IMG/VR virus record: IMGVR_UViG_2802429240_000008
DNA from: a virus
Lineage: Duplodnaviria; Heunggongvirae; Uroviricota; Caudoviricetes
Strand: one strand, 5' to 3'
Length of the DNA: 44,891 nt
The position numbers and the translations under genes are program-made. Positions 1,422-17,914 of the stretch are shown here, in pieces; position 1 is the stretch's first letter, and every line of letters starts with the position of its first letter. The notes beneath the pieces were generated by a model. It was not told the DNA's origin. It saw only the letters and a program-made list of their open reading frames with translations, and did no database searches.

Positions 1422-3893
1422 TTAAAAATCAGCCTGATTCGGGATCAGTTTTTGCCAGATAGCTGAAACGTATTTTGCCTGGTAACGGGCGTCATCAAGT
1501 GCATTATGGCGCTCACCTTCGAATGGGATAGCAGTTCTGGCATCGAAGTCTATGGCTTTCCCCAGCTCAACGATTGTGCGTACATCGCGATCGTTGTGGT
1601 AGCGCCACGGGCAGGGGATCCCCTGTCGTTCGTATGAACGGCGTAAAATCACGTTGTCGAAGTTGGCTCCATTTCCCCAGACCTGGACAAAAAATTCACC
1701 GGAGTTTTCGTCGATAAATTCCCGCAATTGCAGTAGTGCATCATCTAACGGAATTTCATCGGTCAGAAGGGCAGATTGCGTCTCACGTGATTGCTTAAGC
1801 CACCATTTAATGACGTCACGATCAATGACTCCGCCAGCAGTATTCAGATCGATGGTCTTGCTAAATTCCGGCCCCATATCTCCGGTTTGTGGATCGAAAA
1901 ATATTGCGCCTATTGAGATAATCGGGGCATCGGGATTTTTTCCCATGGTTTCAAGGTCGATCATCAGATGAATCCCCGCTCTGCTGGTGGATGTGAGATT
2001 ATGATGACTGTTCGCCTTAATTAAGGGATCTGACGCCTCGCCAGTTTCACTATCGCTGGCATGATGCTGATTGCCGCCAGGGTTCTCCTTGTGCTGATGT
2101 GCAGTACCTTCCATTTCCTCCGGATCATTTTCCTGAACTTCAACCTGATTCTCTTCATCGAATGTTTCCTGGTATGTTGCGTCGCCCATCACCGCGCCAC
2201 AATCAGGGCAGCTACCGCCGCCGGTCTGACCGCAGGCGGTGCAGGCTTTTTCCGGCTCCTGTTGCGCTACTGGTTCAACCTGTTTCGTTTCTGGCTCGTT
2301 TTGTTGCGCATTTGGGCTGTTTTGTTCCGTTTTCTGGTCGTTCTGTTCCGATTCTTGCTGGTTCTGGTTTACAGAATCGCGGGTTTCAATCCCCTTCACC
2401 CATTTCGGATCATTCGGGTCGCTAATCCCTGCAACAAATTCTCCGCGAGAGGCAGCAAGCAACTTATCGGCGTCAGGCTGGCTGATATTGGCTGCCTGCA
2501 TAATTTTGTTTACTTCCTCAGCGGTAACTTTTACCGGCTCTGGTTGTGCGGTCGTGTCAGATGCACCAGTATTTTGTTGTGAACCTGAGTATGTACCGTT
2601 TTTGCGGGCAAAATATTCTTCTTTCGTGATTTCAGTAGCCCCTGCAGTCAGCGCCTTATTCAGACCAGAAAGTTTGTTTGCGCGACCATATTTTTCGCCA
2701 TCCTTATCTGTGAAGAGGAAGTAGAACGGCCCCTCACGCTCTACAGATGGTTCGACTTCCACTTTGCATTCGGTTTTTTCGTTGTCCGGAATTGCCGTTT
2801 CCACTGCATCAGTTTCTGGTACTGGCGACGAGAGAGTATCAGTTGCGCTCTGATTTGTTCCTTCATCTTCAAACACGCCCTTTGTAGTCAGGTATTCAGT
2901 AATGTATTTGTTCAGTGCCACAGGGTCTTTGTGAATGTCGATCGGACGTTCACGGACAAGGCCAAAAATAGTCTGGCGGTCGTAGCGAAGGGCATCAGGC
3001 TGTTTGCGCATTGATGCCGAGATACGCTTCCAGTCTTCGCGGTCGTTGTCGATAACTTCATTTTTTGCCCAGCGATGGATGCTGCCGTCAATGTTTCCGG
3101 CATCAATGTCACCAGGCCACAGAGCGTAGGCCAGTTCATCATCCAGTGTTTTCCATGTCTGTTTGTATTCGCGACGAATGGTGGCAGTGGCTGGGGGGAT
3201 TTTCGCTACTGAGTTTTCAGTGTTCTGCCGGTTGACTCTGGCGCAGGCAAGATCAACAACAGACGTGTATTTCCCGGTTTCTTTGCGTTCGGCTTCGCGA
3301 CGTTTTTTCCAGGTGCGTAATTCTGTCTGGATCTCAGGCCATTTTGCACCCGGCTTACATTTATGTTTAACCCACCCGATGGCGAGCAGCTTAAGCTCTG
3401 AATACATGACGTTAACTTCAGGCATTTTCATCAATGCCTCAACGATATGCCCGTCGAATGTTGCCATGTCCTCCTGCAGTAATTCCTGAGCACTAATCAC
3501 CATATCAACGGTGATGTTTTCACATGTACCGAACTTAACCAGGACCGCGTTCTGTACTTCAAGTGACAGCTTGTCAAAATTGACGTTCATCGGATCGGAT
3601 TCTGGTTCGACCGGAATAAAGGAAGCGGATTCCTCATCCCAGCGGTTTTCCTGCATATATTCGGTATCCCAGGAGTCGATAGCAGGACGGGGCATGCCGG
3701 GTTTATCCTCGCAGACAAGAAATTTATAAGCGCAGTCCTGAGCAGCCGGATATTGCTCCAGGAATTGCCAGGTAAATTTGGCACGGGCGCGGCGTTCGTC
3801 ACCGGCTTCAATGGCAGTGGCTACAGCAACTGCACCTTCTTCCTTTATTGCCTGTTCGTCCGGAATGGCGGCGCAAATAAAGACTTTACTCAT
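1422..3893 (-). CDS. RecE-like exonuclease (823 aa): RecE-type N-terminal/central region fused to a C-terminal DnaQ-like DEDDh 3'-5' exonuclease domain
   Basis: Central segment (DKLLAASRGEFVAGISDPNDPKWVKGI...ACTACGQTGGGSCPDCGAVMGDATYQETFDEENQVE) matches my memory of Rac RecE; C-terminal part has DEDDh motifs (MIDLETMG, WGNGANFDNV, HNALDDARY); ATG at 3891-3893 with upstream GAGG. Confidence 0.75.
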   Translation of the reverse strand: MSKVFICAAIPDEQAIKEEGAVAVATAIEAGDERRARAKFTWQFLEQYPAAQDCAYKFLVCEDKPGMPRPAIDSWDTEYMQENRWDEESASFIPVEPESDPMNVNFDKLSLEVQNAVLVKFGTCENITVDMVISAQELLQEDMATFDGHIVEALMKMPEVNVMYSELKLLAIGWVKHKCKPGAKWPEIQTELRTWKKRREAERKETGKYTSVVDLACARVNRQNTENSVAKIPPATATIRREYKQTWKTLDDELAYALWPGDIDAGNIDGSIHRWAKNEVIDNDREDWKRISASMRKQPDALRYDRQTIFGLVRERPIDIHKDPVALNKYITEYLTTKGVFEDEGTNQSATDTLSSPVPETDAVETAIPDNEKTECKVEVEPSVEREGPFYFLFTDKDGEKYGRANKLSGLNKALTAGATEITKEEYFARKNGTYSGSQQNTGASDTTAQPEPVKVTAEEVNKIMQAANISQPDADKLLAASRGEFVAGISDPNDPKWVKGIETRDSVNQNQQESEQNDQKTEQNSPNAQQNEPETKQVEPVAQQEPEKACTACGQTGGGSCPDCGAVMGDATYQETFDEENQVEVQENDPEEMEGTAHQHKENPGGNQHHASDSETGEASDPLIKANSHHNLTSTSRAGIHLMIDLETMGKNPDAPIISIGAIFFDPQTGDMGPEFSKTIDLNTAGGVIDRDVIKWWLKQSRETQSALLTDEIPLDDALLQLREFIDENSGEFFVQVWGNGANFDNVILRRSYERQGIPCPWRYHNDRDVRTIVELGKAIDFDARTAIPFEGERHNALDDARYQAKYVSAIWQKLIPNQADF

Positions 3894-6116: not shown

Positions 6117-6524
6117 TTATTGATGTTTGTTACGTTTGCGAGCTTCTAGTAGCTCGGTGAATAGGCGATTAAAATTCTCAACGCGGGCACGGAGTTCGCT
6201 GATTTGTGCTTGCTGCTCTGATTTTGGAAGTGCGCGATACAATCGCAACATCTCCAACTCATCTTCCGATAAGTCTAAGGCGCTGTTGAGTGCAACTGGT
6301 GGATCTGGTGTTTTATCCTCGTCACCAAACAGTATCCAAGTTGGTGAACATTGCAATACCTCAGCCAGGCGATGCAAATTTTGCCCGCGCGGGGCTGTAT
6401 GGTCGCTTTCCCATAGTGAAATTGATGAGCCAGATACGCCAGCAGCTTTGCTTAAATCGTTTTGACTTAAACCAACCTGTTTGCGTCTTTCTCTAATTCG
6501 TTGACCTAAAGTTTTCTCGTTCAT
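6117..6524 (-). CDS. dicA: DicA-like HTH (XRE family) prophage repressor, 135 aa
   Basis: N-terminal HTH (LGQRIRERRKQVGLSQNDLSKAAGVSGSSISLWE) and C-terminal LQCSPTWILFGDEDK...ELRARVENFNRLFTELLEARKRN closely resemble E. coli DicA as I recall it; same length; divergent from a Cro-like gene. Confidence 0.85.
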   Translation of the reverse strand: MNEKTLGQRIRERRKQVGLSQNDLSKAAGVSGSSISLWESDHTAPRGQNLHRLAEVLQCSPTWILFGDEDKTPDPPVALNSALDLSEDELEMLRLYRALPKSEQQAQISELRARVENFNRLFTELLEARKRNKHQ

Positions 6525-6601
6525 ATTTAGATATCTTAATAACCCTTGACTTGAGATTCCTTGAGTGATTACTATTGAGAAAACTCAACTTTGGAGGGGT
6601 G
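6525..6601. promoter_or_regulatory. Divergent promoter / operator region between the dicA-like and dicC-like genes
   Basis: Contains TTGACT (6546-6551) and the inverted repeat TTGAGAAAACTCAA (6575-6588) just upstream of the dicC-like start. Confidence 0.4.
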
Positions 6602-9624: not shown

Positions 9625-9639
9625 TTGCCGGAGGCGCTT

Positions 9640-10062
9640 ATGGCAAAAGTATTTACACAAGAAGAGCGGGAAAAAATTAAAGGGCAGGTTGTTGAGCTGG
9701 TACGCCGGAGTGGGCGCGAGACGTTACGGCAACTGGAAGCCAAGACAGGTGCGACAAGATATCTGATGAGCGTTCTCGCCAGAGAGCTGGTTGCCAGTGG
9801 CGATGTATACAACTCTGGTTACGGGTTATTTCCGTCTGAACAGGCCCGTAAGGATTGGCAAAACGCCCGCAAAAAACTATCCAGGGCAAAGGTGAAAAAA
9901 ACGGTTGTGGTTGATCCTGACCTTATCTGGTCATTACCAGACGGAGAAATACGCCGCTACGACAGGCGCCTGAATATAATCTGTCGCGAGTGCCGGAAGA
10001 GCGAAGCTATGCAGCGTGTACTGGCTTTCTATCAGGGTAATTTTCAGGAGGTAGCGCAGTGA
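9640..10062 (+). CDS. Hypothetical protein (140 aa)
   Basis: ATG at 9640 with GGAGG RBS 6 nt upstream; stop overlaps the next gene start (GTGA). Confidence 0.55.
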   Translation: MAKVFTQEEREKIKGQVVELVRRSGRETLRQLEAKTGATRYLMSVLARELVASGDVYNSGYGLFPSEQARKDWQNARKKLSRAKVKKTVVVDPDLIWSLPDGEIRRYDRRLNIICRECRKSEAMQRVLAFYQGNFQEVAQ

Positions 10063-10532
10063 GTGCACCGGCAACCATTCTTGATATGTGCTGTGGCAGT
10101 CGCATGTTCTGGTTCGATAAGAATGACGACCGGGCGATATTTAGCGATATCATAAAGGAAGAGCACACATTGTGTGATGGACGACGCCTGATTATCAGTC
10201 CTGATCTGATAGCTGATTTTCGTGCACTACCATTTGCAGACGCATCTTTTTCGATGGTTATATTCGACCCTCCGCATCTTGAGCGTGTTGGTGATAACGC
10301 CTGGATGGGAAAGAAATATGGACGGCTGAATAAAGATACCTGGCGTGATGATTTGCGGCAGGGATTTAAAGAAGCCTTTCGTGTGTTGCGTCCATACGGC
10401 GCTCTGATTTTTAAATGGAATGAAACGCAAATACCTGTTCGCCAGATATTGGTACTGACCGACAGAAAACCTGTTATCGGTCAACGAACAGAAAAAAACG
10501 ATAAAACCCACTGGATTATTTTTATGAAATAG
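10059..10532 (+). CDS. Small SAM-dependent methyltransferase-like protein (157 aa), putative orphan DNA methyltransferase
   Basis: GTG start coupled to upstream stop with AGGAGG RBS; motif I-like LDMCCGSRMF and catalytic-like FDPPHL. Confidence 0.55.
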   Translation: MSAPATILDMCCGSRMFWFDKNDDRAIFSDIIKEEHTLCDGRRLIISPDLIADFRALPFADASFSMVIFDPPHLERVGDNAWMGKKYGRLNKDTWRDDLRQGFKEAFRVLRPYGALIFKWNETQIPVRQILVLTDRKPVIGQRTEKNDKTHWIIFMK

Positions 10533-11371: not shown

Positions 11372-11516
11372 GTGCTTGAGGCTATCTGCCTCGGGCATGA
11401 ACACCAACGGCAGATAGATAAAAGCCCCACCCGACTATAAATCGAAGTGAGGCCCCTATATGCTCGTCACATATAGATTGCCTCTTACGGACCGAAAGGT
11501 CAAGGAGAAGCAGGCT
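11372..11516 (+). promoter_or_regulatory. hok mRNA 5' leader with in-frame upstream start (mok-like, ATG 11460); expected location of an antisense Sok-like RNA
   Basis: GCTTGAGGCTATCTGCCTC resembles the 5' end of hok-family mRNAs as I recall it; 8-bp inverted repeat tatctgcc/ggcagata; in-frame ATG at 11460 gives a 70-codon ORF. Confidence 0.4.
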
Positions 11517-11672
11517 ATGAAGCAGCAAAAGGCGATGTTAATCGCCCTGATCGTCATCTGTTTAACCGTCATAGTGACGGCACTGGTAACGAGGAAAGAC
11601 CTCTGCGAGGTACGAATCCGAACCGGCCAGACGGAGGTCGCTGTCTTCACAGCTTACGAACCTGAGGAGTAA
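11517..11672 (+). CDS. hokD: Hok/Gef family type I toxin (51 aa)
   Basis: MKQQKAMLIALIVICLTVIVTALVTRKDLCEVRIRTGQTEVAVFTAYEPEE: single TM helix and conserved C-terminal Hok motif; appears to match HokD (RelF) from memory; AAGGAGAAG RBS. Confidence 0.85.
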   Translation: MKQQKAMLIALIVICLTVIVTALVTRKDLCEVRIRTGQTEVAVFTAYEPEE

Positions 11673-11740: not shown

Positions 11741-11769
11741 AACCCGCTTCGGCGGGTTTTTGTTTTTAT
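11741..11769 (+). terminator. Rho-independent terminator after hok
   Basis: aacccgc-ttcg-gcgggtt stem-loop followed by tttgttttt. Confidence 0.7.
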
Positions 11770-14315: not shown

Positions 14316-15076
14316 AAGATTTTCACCGAACGATGGCGACATAACGATTGTATTTTCTAAGGAAACGTGCAAAGAGTTTTCCAATGATGAGCCTTATATG
14401 CATACCGGTGGAAAATATCAATAAGCCGCGCAGAGTGGTTTTTTTGTGGACATAAACTTTGTGCAGAACGGTAACCATTCTGGTTGCCGTGAATGCAGTT
14501 TTTTTACATTGCTGGCTTTTTTAGATTTGTGTTAGTCATTGATATTAACAAGAAGGGGAAAAGACATGCTAAAACGGCAGGATATGAAGGAAACGGTTAT
14601 GCGTGAATGTTCCAGTGTGATTAACCATATCATCTTGGGAAGCCATCCTGATGCAGGGAAGAGGTAACAGTAACGTGCATCAATCAGGCTGCAAATAAAT
14701 GGCTTACGCCGGAAATCTGGCTATCGATGTATTACCGGTTTGTTACCCATGAAGAAAATTAAGGTGATAACGAAACTGATTTTATAGGTGTCTTGTCAGA
14801 GTGTTGCGACGAAACTGGTGTTGGCAGTGTAGGGAAAATAGTAGGATGAAAATTATAAATTGCTTTAAATGAGCTTGATTTCCCTCATGTTATGAGATAT
14901 TTGTCTTATATTGCTGGTTAATTATGAAAATTTTTGTAAATCTACAGCAATAAAATCCATATTAATTAAAGCACTAGATGCGTTTCTGATTTGTGCATGA
15001 AACATACATACCATAATGATTAATTGCATCTATAATTACAGATACAGCATTGTGCTGTTAAAAAACTGGAGTCCCC

Positions 15077-15184
15077 ATGAATACATTATATGTAAGTGAT
15101 TCAAATGAAAAATCTCATGACAGGAATAAAAACAATGAGGATAGTAAGGGTAAGGATAATAAAAAAGACAACCGGAAAGAGTAA
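15077..15184 (+). CDS. Small Lys/Asn-rich hydrophilic ORF (35 aa)
   Basis: Manual translation: MNTLYVSDSNEKSHDRNKNNEDSKGKDNKKDNRKE; weak SD (CTGGAG); in the AT-rich island. Confidence 0.25.
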   Translation: MNTLYVSDSNEKSHDRNKNNEDSKGKDNKKDNRKE

Positions 15185-15219
15185 ATAATCTTTCCTGCAT
15201 AAAAATACTAGGGTGGAAT

Positions 15220-15339
15220 ATGTCAGAACATCCAGATTTTGATGACCGTAAGCCTGATGATGAGCCCGTTGAGCGTCCTGATGAGGGGCAACCATTGAAC
15301 CCTTTTTCACCGGATGATAAAAGAGAACCTATTATTTAG
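15220..15339 (+). CDS. Small acidic ORF (39 aa)
   Basis: Manual translation: MSEHPDFDDRKPDDEPVERPDEGQPLNPFSPDDKREPII; followed about 50 nt later by a strong terminator. Confidence 0.3.
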   Translation: MSEHPDFDDRKPDDEPVERPDEGQPLNPFSPDDKREPII

Positions 15340-15390
15340 ATATAGCAGAATATAGCCGTTTAAAGTAGGTTGTGTTTTGTTGCTATCCTT

Positions 15391-15419
15391 AAACCACCTC
15401 CACAGGAGGTGGTTTTTTA
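15391..15419 (+). terminator. Rho-independent terminator
   Basis: aaaccacctcc-acag-gaggtggttt followed by tttt. Confidence 0.65.
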
Positions 15420-15475
15420 CTAATGGAACATTAATTGGTAGATGTGATTGTGTACGACTTATGGGAGGCTTAAGA

Positions 15476-15661
15476 TTATTTTCTGCCAATAATAAAACCA
15501 AGCGTTAACCCTATGCTTAGAGCGACCACCACGCTAGTCAGTGGATAATTTCTAAATTTATCTTTAACGTTTTCTTTGCCTGCCTGCAAAGCATCGTCAG
15601 CACATGATGCATATTTTTTGACAGTATTAACTATTTCGTTTTCAGATTGATTTGAAGTCAT
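15476..15661 (-). CDS. Small tail-anchored membrane protein (61 aa) with a DUF883/ElaB-like C-terminus
   Basis: Internal ATG at 15659-15661 (the track ORF starts at a TTG); C-terminal LTSVVVALSIGLTLGFIIGRK resembles the membrane anchor of ElaB/YqjD-type proteins. Confidence 0.45.
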   Translation of the reverse strand: MTSNQSENEIVNTVKKYASCADDALQAGKENVKDKFRNYPLTSVVVALSIGLTLGFIIGRK

Positions 15662-16116
15662 GTTTGAAGTCCTGATGTTAAGTGGCTTTTTAATTATAGC
15701 AGATATGCTTTCAATGATAGGGCGAAGAGCTGTTATTGAGGTGATACTATGACCACTCAATCAACATTACATAAAATGACGTTTACTCCTGTTTGGCACA
15801 GTAGCAGAATTTTGCTTCTGCTACTGAAGTCGCTTTAGCACTAGAATATGCTGATGGATAAAGCAGTTCAGCGTATGTACTGCGTCATGCATATCGGTCT
15901 TGCAGATATGACGAGAAGGGGAGACAAGGTGTGTGTAATGTAGAAGTCTTTAAAGTGCTGCCTGGGATAACTCTATGCTGAAGTGCAATTGATAAAAGTA
16001 ACACGATAAAGGTTTTTCAATGAAGATGGCAACGTGATGCTTGCATTTTTCAAAAAATATGGATAAGATTCCCTCAATGATGGGCTTTGTATATCTGATG
16101 TTTAGAAAGAAATTAG

Positions 16117-16146
16117 AAAACCCGCTGATGAGCGGGTTTTGTGCTT
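16117..16146. terminator. Stem-loop terminator, possibly bidirectional
   Basis: aaaacccgct-gatg-agcgggtttt with flanking A/T runs. Confidence 0.55.
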
Positions 16147-16432
16147 TAAATGGGGCAATGGTGATGTTGAACCTCATCCCGGGACCCATGTCTGTTAACT
16201 TATTATTTAACTGGTGACTTAGTTATTTGCCTGATGTTTAAAATGTTTTCTTCCAGTACAATGTCCCTAAACACAATGAGTCTGCTTATTATATTATTAG
16301 CAGAGCTATTACGGCCAAAGTACAGCATAAGCTTTTAAAGCCAATCAACCAGTCATCAAGGCAGACGGGGTTATTCATAAAAACTCTCCATGTGTGATCC
16401 GATGGGGCTTAAAGTAAAAGCTTTAATATAGC

Positions 16433-16633
16433 TCATGAAAGATAAACATTGGCAGCTGAAGGTCCACGTAGACCATTGATTCGGCAAAATTCCACGCGTA
16501 ATCCTGTGGTAATTTCTTCTGCATCGCGGAGATTGAGAGCAGAAACGTGCAGCTGGACATCGATACGGCCATCGGATGGTATGATAAGACCTTTGCCGCT
16601 TTTGTAGTCAAAGGTTTTGACAATTCCTGTCAT
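16433..16633 (-). CDS. cspF: Cold-shock protein, CspA family (CspF-like, 66 aa)
   Basis: [34 protein letters not shown]...[16 protein letters not shown]: cold-shock domain with RNP-like motifs; divergent from a second csp gene. Confidence 0.8.
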
Positions 16634-16946
16634 TTTACGGGACAAAAAAAATTCCTTAATACTGATAACTTGGCGCACTATACACACGTTCCTGAAGAAA
16701 GCTATAGTTTTTTGATGGGGTTGAAGATGGCTGGATGTCTAAAATAAACATTGCTTCATATGTTCAACTATGCGTTAATGATTGCGTCGGTTTGAAGAAC
16801 AGACGATATACGAAGTAGTTTACTAAAGCAGTTCTCATTTCAGGTGTTATTCACTTATTCCTTCTTTGAGTCTCTCCAATTAAGTACGAAGTCGTTTCTG
16901 TTATACAAACCATTTATGCCGAAAGGCTCAAGTTAAGGAATGTAGA

Positions 16947-17162
16947 ATGTCAAATAAAATGACTGGTTTAGTAAAATGGTTTAACGCTGATAAAGGTTTT
17001 GGCTTTATTTCTCCTGTTGATGGTAGTAAAGATGTGTTTGTGCATTTTTCTGTGATTCAGAATGATAATTATCGAACCTTATTTGAAGGTCAAAAGGTTA
17101 CCTTCTCTGTAGAGAGTGGTGCTAAAGGTCCTGCAGCAGCAAATGTCATCATTAATGATTAA
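16947..17162 (+). CDS. cspB: Cold-shock protein, CspA family (CspB-like, 71 aa)
   Basis: [53 protein letters not shown]...: canonical cold-shock domain; AAGGA RBS. Confidence 0.9.
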
Positions 17163-17443
17163 AATTCATAGTTTGTCTGTATACGATAACGAAGAAGGCT
17201 GATGCCTGAGTGGAGATACAGACAGAGTGGTGAATATTGGATCTCTTTAATAAAGAGTAAGGAGGTCCAATACATGAAACAATGGCCAGCATATTTGGTA
17301 ATAACTTAATCAGGAAAAGTATGCTAACCATTGTGGTGAAGTGCAGGTTTGCTGCATGAATAGTTTTACAGCAGAAGCTAACTGCTGGCATAGCAAAACA
17401 AAGTGCGTAAGTGGATGACTCTCACAAAAAGCACCACAATATT

Positions 17444-17468
17444 AAACCCGCTCAGGCGGGTTTTTTAT
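17444..17468. terminator. Rho-independent terminator between convergent genes
   Basis: aaacccgc-tcag-gcgggttt followed by tttttatt. Confidence 0.7.
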
Positions 17469-17525
17469 TATCTGCTTTAAATATATTATTAAAATATAAA
17501 AAATACTTGTTGCGAATAAAATCAA

Positions 17526-17696
17526 TCAGGCTACAGCTTTAAGATTTGTCTGGAATACTTTGTTGCAATGAGGGCAGATCAAAAGGGCACCTTTTTGTAC
17601 TCTTGAAAAACTGTGTTCTGACTCTTGGGTGCAGTTTGGGCAGGAACATTTAACGAGATAATTACGGCGTGATTTTGAGTCTTTACGTTCTGACAT
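17526..17696 (-). CDS. Small zinc-ribbon protein (56 aa)
   Basis: Internal ATG with AGGAAAAG RBS; CSCPNC...CPHC cysteine pairs. Confidence 0.5.
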   Translation of the reverse strand: MSERKDSKSRRNYLVKCSCPNCTQESEHSFSRVQKGALLICPHCNKVFQTNLKAVA

Positions 17697-17914
17697 AGGC
17701 TTTTCCTGTATAAATGGCCGTATACAGTACACTAAATATGAAAACATTTCTCGTATTATTAATTAATATATGATTTTCTTTAAAATAATTAACCACATTT
17801 TTAATGTGTATGTTTTTTTAGCGCCGTTGAGAACAACGTGTGCTGTAAAAACTACCCCGTAGACTCCGATATTTTCAAACATATTGCACCATCCGTGTAC
17901 ATCGGGGTGAGGAT

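Follow-up and report, generated by a model that had tools for sequence, protein, structure and literature searches.

What could be the substrate of a methyltransferase of only 157 amino acids, encoded with no restriction endonuclease at its side and too short for a target-recognition domain? This question is raised by a gene in a 44,891-nucleotide stretch of viral DNA (IMG/VR record IMGVR_UViG_2802429240_000008), the whole of which is referred to below as the window. An earlier note on this DNA had described the gene product as an orphan methyltransferase with an atypical DPPH motif and had placed it either among anti-restriction DNA methyltransferases or among non-DNA methyltransferases.

The gene and its setting in a lambdoid prophage

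The window was found to cover an entire lambdoid prophage, i.e., a lambda-like prophage of E. coli. Its genes follow the order integrase, 823-aa exonuclease, CI-type repressor, YdaT-like protein, DnaT-domain replication protein, lambda-P-like protein, DUF1627, DUF977, methyltransferase, DUF551, Hok, DUF968 and antiterminator Q, followed by lysis and morphogenesis genes. The gene of the lambda-type integrase spans positions 1–1131 on the minus strand, and that of the CI-type repressor (HTH_3/Phage_CI_repr) positions 6117–6524 on the same strand.

The methyltransferase gene is real and intact. According to both the ORF list and the sequence, it occupies positions 10059–10532 (plus strand) and runs from a GTG start to a TAG stop, encoding 157 amino acids. 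The gene directly upstream (9625–10062, plus strand) codes for a DUF977 protein (Pfam PF06163, E = 1.5e-29), and its TGA stop shares bases with the GTG start of the methyltransferase gene in the sequence GTGA at 10059–10062. A Shine-Dalgarno-like AGGAGG box can be read from the sequence at 10046–10051 (plus strand), 7 nt before the start codon. The overlap of start and stop together with this box suggests that translation of the methyltransferase is coupled to that of the DUF977 gene.

No restriction endonuclease gene lies beside the window methyltransferase, whose direct neighbors are the DUF977 and DUF551 genes; the designation as an orphan in the earlier note is therefore borne out. A Type II restriction-modification system was rejected on the same grounds, with neither an adjacent endonuclease nor a nuclease recurring near the gene in 78 species.

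A consensus scan placed a pR-like promoter candidate at 6546–6575 (plus strand), adjoining the divergent CI-type repressor gene. The same kind of scan revealed no strong terminator-like site between this candidate and the methyltransferase gene, the first one being located at 11741–11758; thus, the gene is probably carried on the early-right transcript. Its position after the replication genes and before Q makes it a probable member of the early-right operon. As this operon would be controlled by the repressor, no expression of the gene would be expected in a lysogen, and a comparison of the methylome of a lysogen with that of a deletion mutant would probably be uninformative.

A widespread family with a DPPH signature

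The window protein is matched by the PHROG profile phrog_954, labeled "DNA methyltransferase" (residues 5–157, E = 6.6e-84), and by two PADLOC models, PDLC03288 for Type II methyltransferases (MTase_II; residues 6–157, E = 1.9e-70) and PDLC03730 for orphan methyltransferases (oMTase; residues 6–157, E = 2.9e-48). The first two matches, along with the ORF list and the sequence itself, confirm the earlier reading of a 157-aa protein with the motifs DMCCGSRMF and FDPPH. PADLOC PDLC03265 and phrog_67 matched weakly. In Pfam searches (E ≤ 1), Methyltransf_11 proved borderline (21.8 bits vs. a cut-off of 21.2) and Methyltransf_25 stayed under its cut-off, while none of the DNA amino-methyltransferase models N6_N4_Mtase, N6_Mtase, MethyltransfD12, MT-A70 and Dam gave a match. 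Among NCBIfam models, none reaches its cut-off for the window protein, and the weak matches are generic or of small-molecule type; overall, the weak Pfam and NCBIfam matches are to Methyltransf_11, UbiE, BioC and similar models.

An exhaustive profile-free search (E ≤ 0.001) yielded 1,943 family clusters at 50% identity. Copies are carried by 947 of the 5,426 complete E. coli genomes, or about one in six, where a copy is defined by DNA at least about 80% identical; these are annotated alike and mostly adjoin DUF977. In tblastn searches, a family member was detected in 253 phage genomes, including phages of Streptococcus, Vibrio, Acinetobacter, Porphyromonas, Listeria and Gordonia, as well as of Lactobacillus, Enterococcus, Staphylococcus, Corynebacterium, Bacteroides and Akkermansia. 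Members from phages of different phyla share 45–60% identity across their whole length in these searches, and the homologue of the haloarchaeal virus HSTV-1 retains 35%. Such cross-phylum conservation is unusually high and would fit a universally conserved non-DNA substrate as well. Selection across genera is strongly purifying, with dN values of 0.11–0.32; dS is saturated in all comparisons but one, so that a single dN/dS ratio could be measured across genera, which amounts to 0.047.

The family is thus very widespread in phages and prophages and is already catalogued in PHROG, PADLOC and RefSeq; the rarity implied by the earlier note was mistaken. In public databases, an identical protein from unclassified Escherichia has the accession WP_105281614.1 and the name "class I SAM-dependent methyltransferase." With an identical protein in RefSeq, models in PHROG and PADLOC and copies in so large a share of E. 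coli genomes, the finding is in itself largely ordinary.

Members of the family share the signature LDxCCGxR (motif I), D30, PD...DF (motif III), FDPPH (motif IV) and RVL...G.L.FKW. In the window protein, motif I, the SAM-binding loop, takes the variant form ILDMCCGSRMF (residues 7–17; 10077–10109, plus strand), in which D9 and G13 are invariant in the family and C11, C12 and R15 nearly so. Motif IV, FDPPH (residues 69–73; 10263–10277, plus strand), has a histidine in the aromatic position of the catalytic tetrapeptide. D70 was found in 515, P71 in 517, and P72 and H73 each in 518 of the 521 aligned relatives. Further invariant or nearly invariant positions include P48-D49 and D53-F54 in the motif III region, K86-Y87-G88, R108 and K119-W120. 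Across 81–521 relatives, all positions for SAM binding and catalysis are invariant, and the window protein has all the family invariants, namely D9, G13, D30, P48, D70-P-P-H73, R108 and W120.

The tetrapeptide (D/N/S)PP followed by an aromatic residue is the hallmark of methylation at an exocyclic or amide nitrogen, as in DNA m6A and m4C, RNA m2G and m6A, and protein glutamine-N5 methylation. It makes amino-nitrogen chemistry reasonably clear and the substrate less so. The canonical motif (D/N/S)PP(Y/F/W) does not describe the family, since its last residue is replaced by histidine both in the window protein and in nearly all relatives. The earlier note was correct in that DPPH differs from the usual tetrapeptide, but it is no quirk of the window copy: DPPH is the signature of the whole family. 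A literature search on the DPPH motif returned no match.

A minimal catalytic domain

The AlphaFold2 model of the window protein is confident (pLDDT 95, pTM 0.89). It is predicted to form a Rossmann-type sheet with just three helices, all in the C-terminal half (residues 82–87, 95–109 and 127–131). Residues 10–25 and 47–63 are modeled as loops where class I methyltransferases normally have their first helices, and a β-hairpin (34–37/43–46) fills the β2-β3 region. The conserved core of the family is basic, with a median pI of 8.7 and a net charge of +3.

Longer relatives possess no fused recognition or binding domain; their 41 N-terminal and 28 C-terminal extensions are mutually dissimilar and probably represent miscalled starts or read-through into neighboring ORFs. 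As these extensions are unrelated to one another, the functional unit is the core of about 150 amino acids. The remark that the protein is too short for a target-recognition domain therefore extends to the whole family; the window protein is a catalytic domain alone.

DNA methyltransferases of such small size do exist, as the small phage Dam enzymes (e.g., HP1 orf13) show. Like the window protein, HP1 orf13 is an orphan encoded by a phage at the end of an early operon, and with 173 aa it has no separate recognition domain. Yet, it carries an NPPY motif and a different motif order, and this family was rejected as a relative, with an hhalign probability of 0.4%. Weak local similarity, around motif IV and the "RVLkpgG" strand that comes after it, links the window protein with beta-class N4/N6 enzymes such as TTHA0409 (2zie) and cds16 of pneumophage SpSL1. 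In these enzymes, however, motif I is C-terminal and the chain is 220–330 aa long, whereas the window protein has motif I first and 157 aa. The SpSL1 protein, reported as an "N6-adenine methylase with no detectable methylation" (PMC6755750), was accordingly rejected as a family member, being a 224-aa beta-class enzyme.

Gene neighborhood across species

We surveyed the neighborhood of the gene in 78 genomes, one per species, which gave 147 immediate neighbors. These are mixed prophage early genes from replication/recombination modules, including those for CII, P, O, SSB, NinB, RusA and RdgC. Seven of the 147 encode other DNA methyltransferases (five of the C5 type, one Dam-D12 and one MT-A70). 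No conserved partner gene was detected in the 78 species. In E. coli, DUF977 usually adjoins the gene, yet it is found only once among 75 upstream neighbors in other species. In Enterococcus and Listeria phages, the methyltransferase gene is likewise located in the early region. In Listeria phage LP-101, it adjoins an ORF annotated with an N6-adenine DNA-methylase conserved site.

DNA as the probable substrate and a possible link to M.NgoMXV

The library labels attached to the family in PHROG (phrog_954) and PADLOC all read DNA methyltransferase; these labels are annotations and not tests. A more specific name comes from a homologue of Klebsiella variicola At-22 (ADC57975.1, P0317), 79% identical to the window protein, which its depositor named "DNA N-4 cytosine methyltransferase M.NgoMXV." Independent annotators likewise named the homologues of Enterococcus phage phiFL1B and of HSTV-1 cytosine methyltransferases. 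The literature treats M.NgoMXV of N. gonorrhoeae MS11 as an unusual N4-cytosine DNA methyltransferase of the gamma class (Loenen et al.) and as a known N4mC methylase (Xu et al., 2010; PMC2890505). NgoAXV of strain FA1090, an m5C enzyme acting on GGNNCC, was rejected as a synonym, being a different enzyme.

The family is represented in Neisseriaceae by Snodgrassella alvi (57% identity) and Neisseria dumasiana. In addition, IMG/VR prophage contigs with a family member contain Neisseria DNA-uptake sequences of the AGGCCGTCTGAA dialect, up to eight of them within 7 kb. One of these Neisseria prophages (L110) encodes a 159-aa homologue, 59% identical to the window protein, directly followed by a C5-cytosine methylase gene which a stop codon and a frameshift have split into three PF00145 fragments. 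In five other contigs (L105, L107, L117, L118 and L125), the tandem C5-cytosine methylase gene is in one frame. The original description of M.NgoMXV reportedly concerned tandem genes in MS11, one for the active m4C enzyme M.NgoMXV and the other for a non-functional m5C-type protein, M.NgoMorf2P. M.NgoMXV itself is said to have a DPPH tetrapeptide, to be without most of the target-recognition domain and to be of relaxed specificity. The tandem arrangement of L110 matches the layout reported for M.NgoMXV and M.NgoMorf2P, while the window prophage differs from it in having no adjacent m5C gene. The Neisseria prophages found are of the commensal type, with the AG-type uptake sequence, and a N. gonorrhoeae member was absent among the matches listed from genome contigs, from protein searches seeded with the Snodgrassella and N. 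dumasiana sequences, and from IMG/VR. The window protein also resembles the M.NgoMXV type in its gamma-like motif order, I (residues 7–17) followed by IV (69–73). The putative relationship between M.NgoMXV and the window protein is drawn indirectly from the depositor's label, the presence of the family in the genus Neisseria and the reported features of M.NgoMXV.

Between the two options of the earlier note, the evidence leans to DNA over a non-DNA substrate, on account of the library labels, the M.NgoMXV name and the gene neighborhood, although fold searches do not discriminate between them. On balance, we favor the reading that the window enzyme is an early-expressed orphan DNA amino-methyltransferase, probably forming N4-methylcytosine with relaxed specificity and protecting phage DNA. 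According to this proposal, the enzyme would be produced together with the replication proteins once the prophage is induced or a cell is infected, at the time of phage DNA synthesis. It would bind SAM through motifs I–III, and the target base would be flipped into the DPPH pocket, where its exocyclic amino group would be methylated. If M.NgoMXV is taken as a model, the target is most likely N4 of cytosine, and a short or degenerate context may be read via loops of the catalytic domain. Replicating phage DNA would be marked in this manner, so that the progeny would be protected in advance from the restriction systems of the next host.

Alternative products and substrates

The same role on DNA could also be played with N6-methyladenine as the product, perhaps with little sequence specificity, similar to phage orphan adenine methylases. 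We regard this as rather unlikely, although a motif IV tetrapeptide that begins with aspartate (DPPx) is generally known to be typical of adenine-N6 enzymes, m4C enzymes usually having serine, and although the Foldseek matches include M.TaqI and M.BceJIV. Gamma-class enzymes also methylate mainly adenine (PMC3874165), a habit which would point in the same direction. Set against this, the sole named relative is an m4C enzyme, both phage annotators independently chose "cytosine," and the PROSITE-type N6 pattern demands F, Y or W, and not H, as the last residue.

Since fold searches do not separate DNA, RNA and protein amino-methyltransferases, a non-DNA substrate retains some probability. The reading that the family methylates a universally conserved non-DNA target, its DNA label being an inherited annotation error, seems to us improbable. 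It has a precedent in HemK, which was once misannotated as a DNA methylase owing to its NPPY motif. Among the conceivable targets are bases of rRNA or tRNA, translation factors and nucleotides that serve an immune system as second messengers. If the target is RNA in particular, the enzyme would act as an m2G or m6A amino-methyltransferase of rRNA or tRNA, retuning or protecting the host translation apparatus. A universally conserved target of this kind would account for the identity retained across phyla, and some of the top matches are minimal methyltransferases (Bud23, Trm9 and Trm11). Trm11 (m2G10), TrmN, RsmC, Trm14, UPF0020, RsmD (HI0767) and TrmM, which came up in profile and fold searches, are as weak as any other match, their profile E-values being 0.03–0.6. 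The RNA m2G enzymes (Trm11, RsmC, RsmD and TrmN/Trm14) bind RNA through an N-terminal domain, THUMP or another, or depend on Trm112, whereas in the window family neither an RNA-binding domain (THUMP, PUA or other) nor any conserved extension is present. None of these enzymes is borne by phages within replication modules, where the window gene is located. For the class Trm11/RsmC/RsmD/UPF0020, we found no significant sequence match, a merely generic likeness in fold, no extra domain and, in 78 species, no conserved partner. The family is co-located with DNA methyltransferases and replication genes, and the curated phage and defense libraries are unanimous in their DNA label, all of which renders an RNA target very unlikely. 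Least probable is a protein methyltransferase (e.g., a glutamine-N5 enzyme of the HemK/PrmC type) or a small-molecule or nucleotide methyltransferase. Fold matches do include HemK/PrmC, KMT9, NRMT1 and many small-molecule methyltransferases, and the weak Pfam and NCBIfam matches are of the generic or small-molecule kind; these matches, however, span the generic SAM-binding core only. With HemK/PrmC the Foldseek E-value is about 6e-4 for the core alone, and the window protein has DPPH instead of NPPY and no N-terminal domain. Furthermore, the DPP(aromatic)-type motif and the conserved basic surface would better suit a flipped nucleobase, and no conserved neighbor offers itself as a substrate or pathway partner.

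The window allele

Whatever the function of the family, the window copy departs from it at one conserved position. Residue 32 is isoleucine (ATA) in the window protein and arginine in 510 of 521 relatives (98%). It belongs to the stretch D30-I31-I32 (10146–10154, plus strand), in which the invariant D30 ends strand β2. In class I methyltransferases, the acidic residue ending β2 (the motif II position) binds the ribose of SAM. In the nearest E. coli allele (L001, strain O177:H21), Arg32 is encoded by AGA, so that the window differs from it by AGA to ATA at nucleotide 10153. In total, the two alleles differ by five nucleotides, all of them non-synonymous (dS = 0), corresponding to R32I and to the window/L001 residues Y/S113, A/V115, V/I132 and E/G145.

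The change of a highly conserved arginine close to the ribose-binding D30 means that the window allele may be weakened or inactive. We consider it possible, if doubtful, that this allele is decaying or hypomorphic and is carried without contributing function. The near-invariant arginine lost in R32I lies two residues past D30, and the changes of Val115 to Ala and of Gly145 to Glu look derived when compared with eleven other aligned homologues. A set of exclusively non-synonymous differences is, in addition, improbable under the strong purifying selection seen across genera and fits relaxed constraint, although with five substitutions the case is no more than suggestive. The reading frame, start codon, ribosome-binding site and strictly invariant residues are nevertheless all intact, and public data contain the identical allele on 7 contigs, both of which argue against decay.

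Implications for temperate phages

The interest of the gene lies in how a 150-residue enzyme without a recognition domain selects its target, in the reason for its strong conservation across phyla, and in whether the M.NgoMXV-type N4-cytosine assignment is valid for the enterobacterial prophage copies. Should the target prove to be other than DNA, the function would be one of host takeover or counter-defense. As for the favored DNA methyltransferase reading, if phage DNA is widely marked with m4C by enzymes of this family, these would constitute a common and overlooked anti-restriction device of temperate phages and would also be one cause of m4C signals in induced cultures that otherwise lack an explanation.

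Sequence and prophage context of the methyltransferase gene

The small methyltransferase with the DPPH motif (157 aa; window 10059-10532, + strand) departs from its relatives at codon 32 (window position 10153), which reads ATA (Ile) in the prophage copy, whereas the alignment shows Arg at this site in 98% of the 521 relatives. We also found that all five of the five nucleotide differences between this copy and L001, the nearest E. coli allele, are non-synonymous. The non-Arg codon together with the exclusively non-synonymous differences suggests that the window copy may be under relaxed constraint.

The nin-like region of the prophage carries an ORF for a Hok/Gef-family toxin (11460-11672, + strand; Pfam, 2.9e-23), which is followed by a terminator-like hairpin at 11741-11758, the strongest such site of the early region. 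Further downstream, the stretch of approximately 3.5 kb between the antiterminator gene Q and the lysis genes (14400-17900) is almost devoid of long ORFs and includes two ORFs for CspA-like cold-shock proteins, located on opposite strands (16433-16687, - strand, and 16947-17162, + strand). This stretch is similar to the region of the Qin-type prophage that carries csp cargo. A search of the whole window for tRNA genes found none. The early-left operon encodes an 823-aa "exonuclease" (1422-3893, - strand), the C-terminal part of which is an Rv2179c-like 3'-5' exoribonuclease domain (2.1e-65), while its initial ~640 residues are without a Pfam match.

Fused and tandem forms in the methyltransferase family

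Many of the copies encoded by Enterobacteriaceae (Leclercia, Enterobacter, and others; e.g., P0010, P0025, P0081, and P0121) reach 248-251 aa, as they extend beyond the methyltransferase core by a fused, conserved C-terminal segment of ~90 aa (containing LPAHHQRRLKHHINRMWL). Neither the window copy nor the majority of family members has this segment. In Listeria phage LP-101 (L003), the family member is directly preceded upstream by a second small ORF of 176 aa (L003:3456-3986), which is annotated as having a conserved site of N6-adenine DNA methylases; thus, some phages may possess tandem methyltransferase genes.

A further methylase neighbor is encountered in prophage contigs of the Neisseria type from IMG/VR. 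Immediately 3' of the small methyltransferase in L110 lies a C5-cytosine DNA methylase gene (L110:5348-6651), broken into three fragments by one stop and one frameshift; the gene is a single frame in the related loci L105, L107, L117, L118, and L125. A methylome study of N. gonorrhoeae reported m4C at AAANCGGTTNNC in more than 14 of 25 strains; only 17-20% of the sites were methylated, and the signal was not attributed to any enzyme (PMC6789123). As pure speculation, a candidate source of this gonococcal signal could be a prophage m4C methylase of relaxed specificity belonging to the DPPH methyltransferase family.
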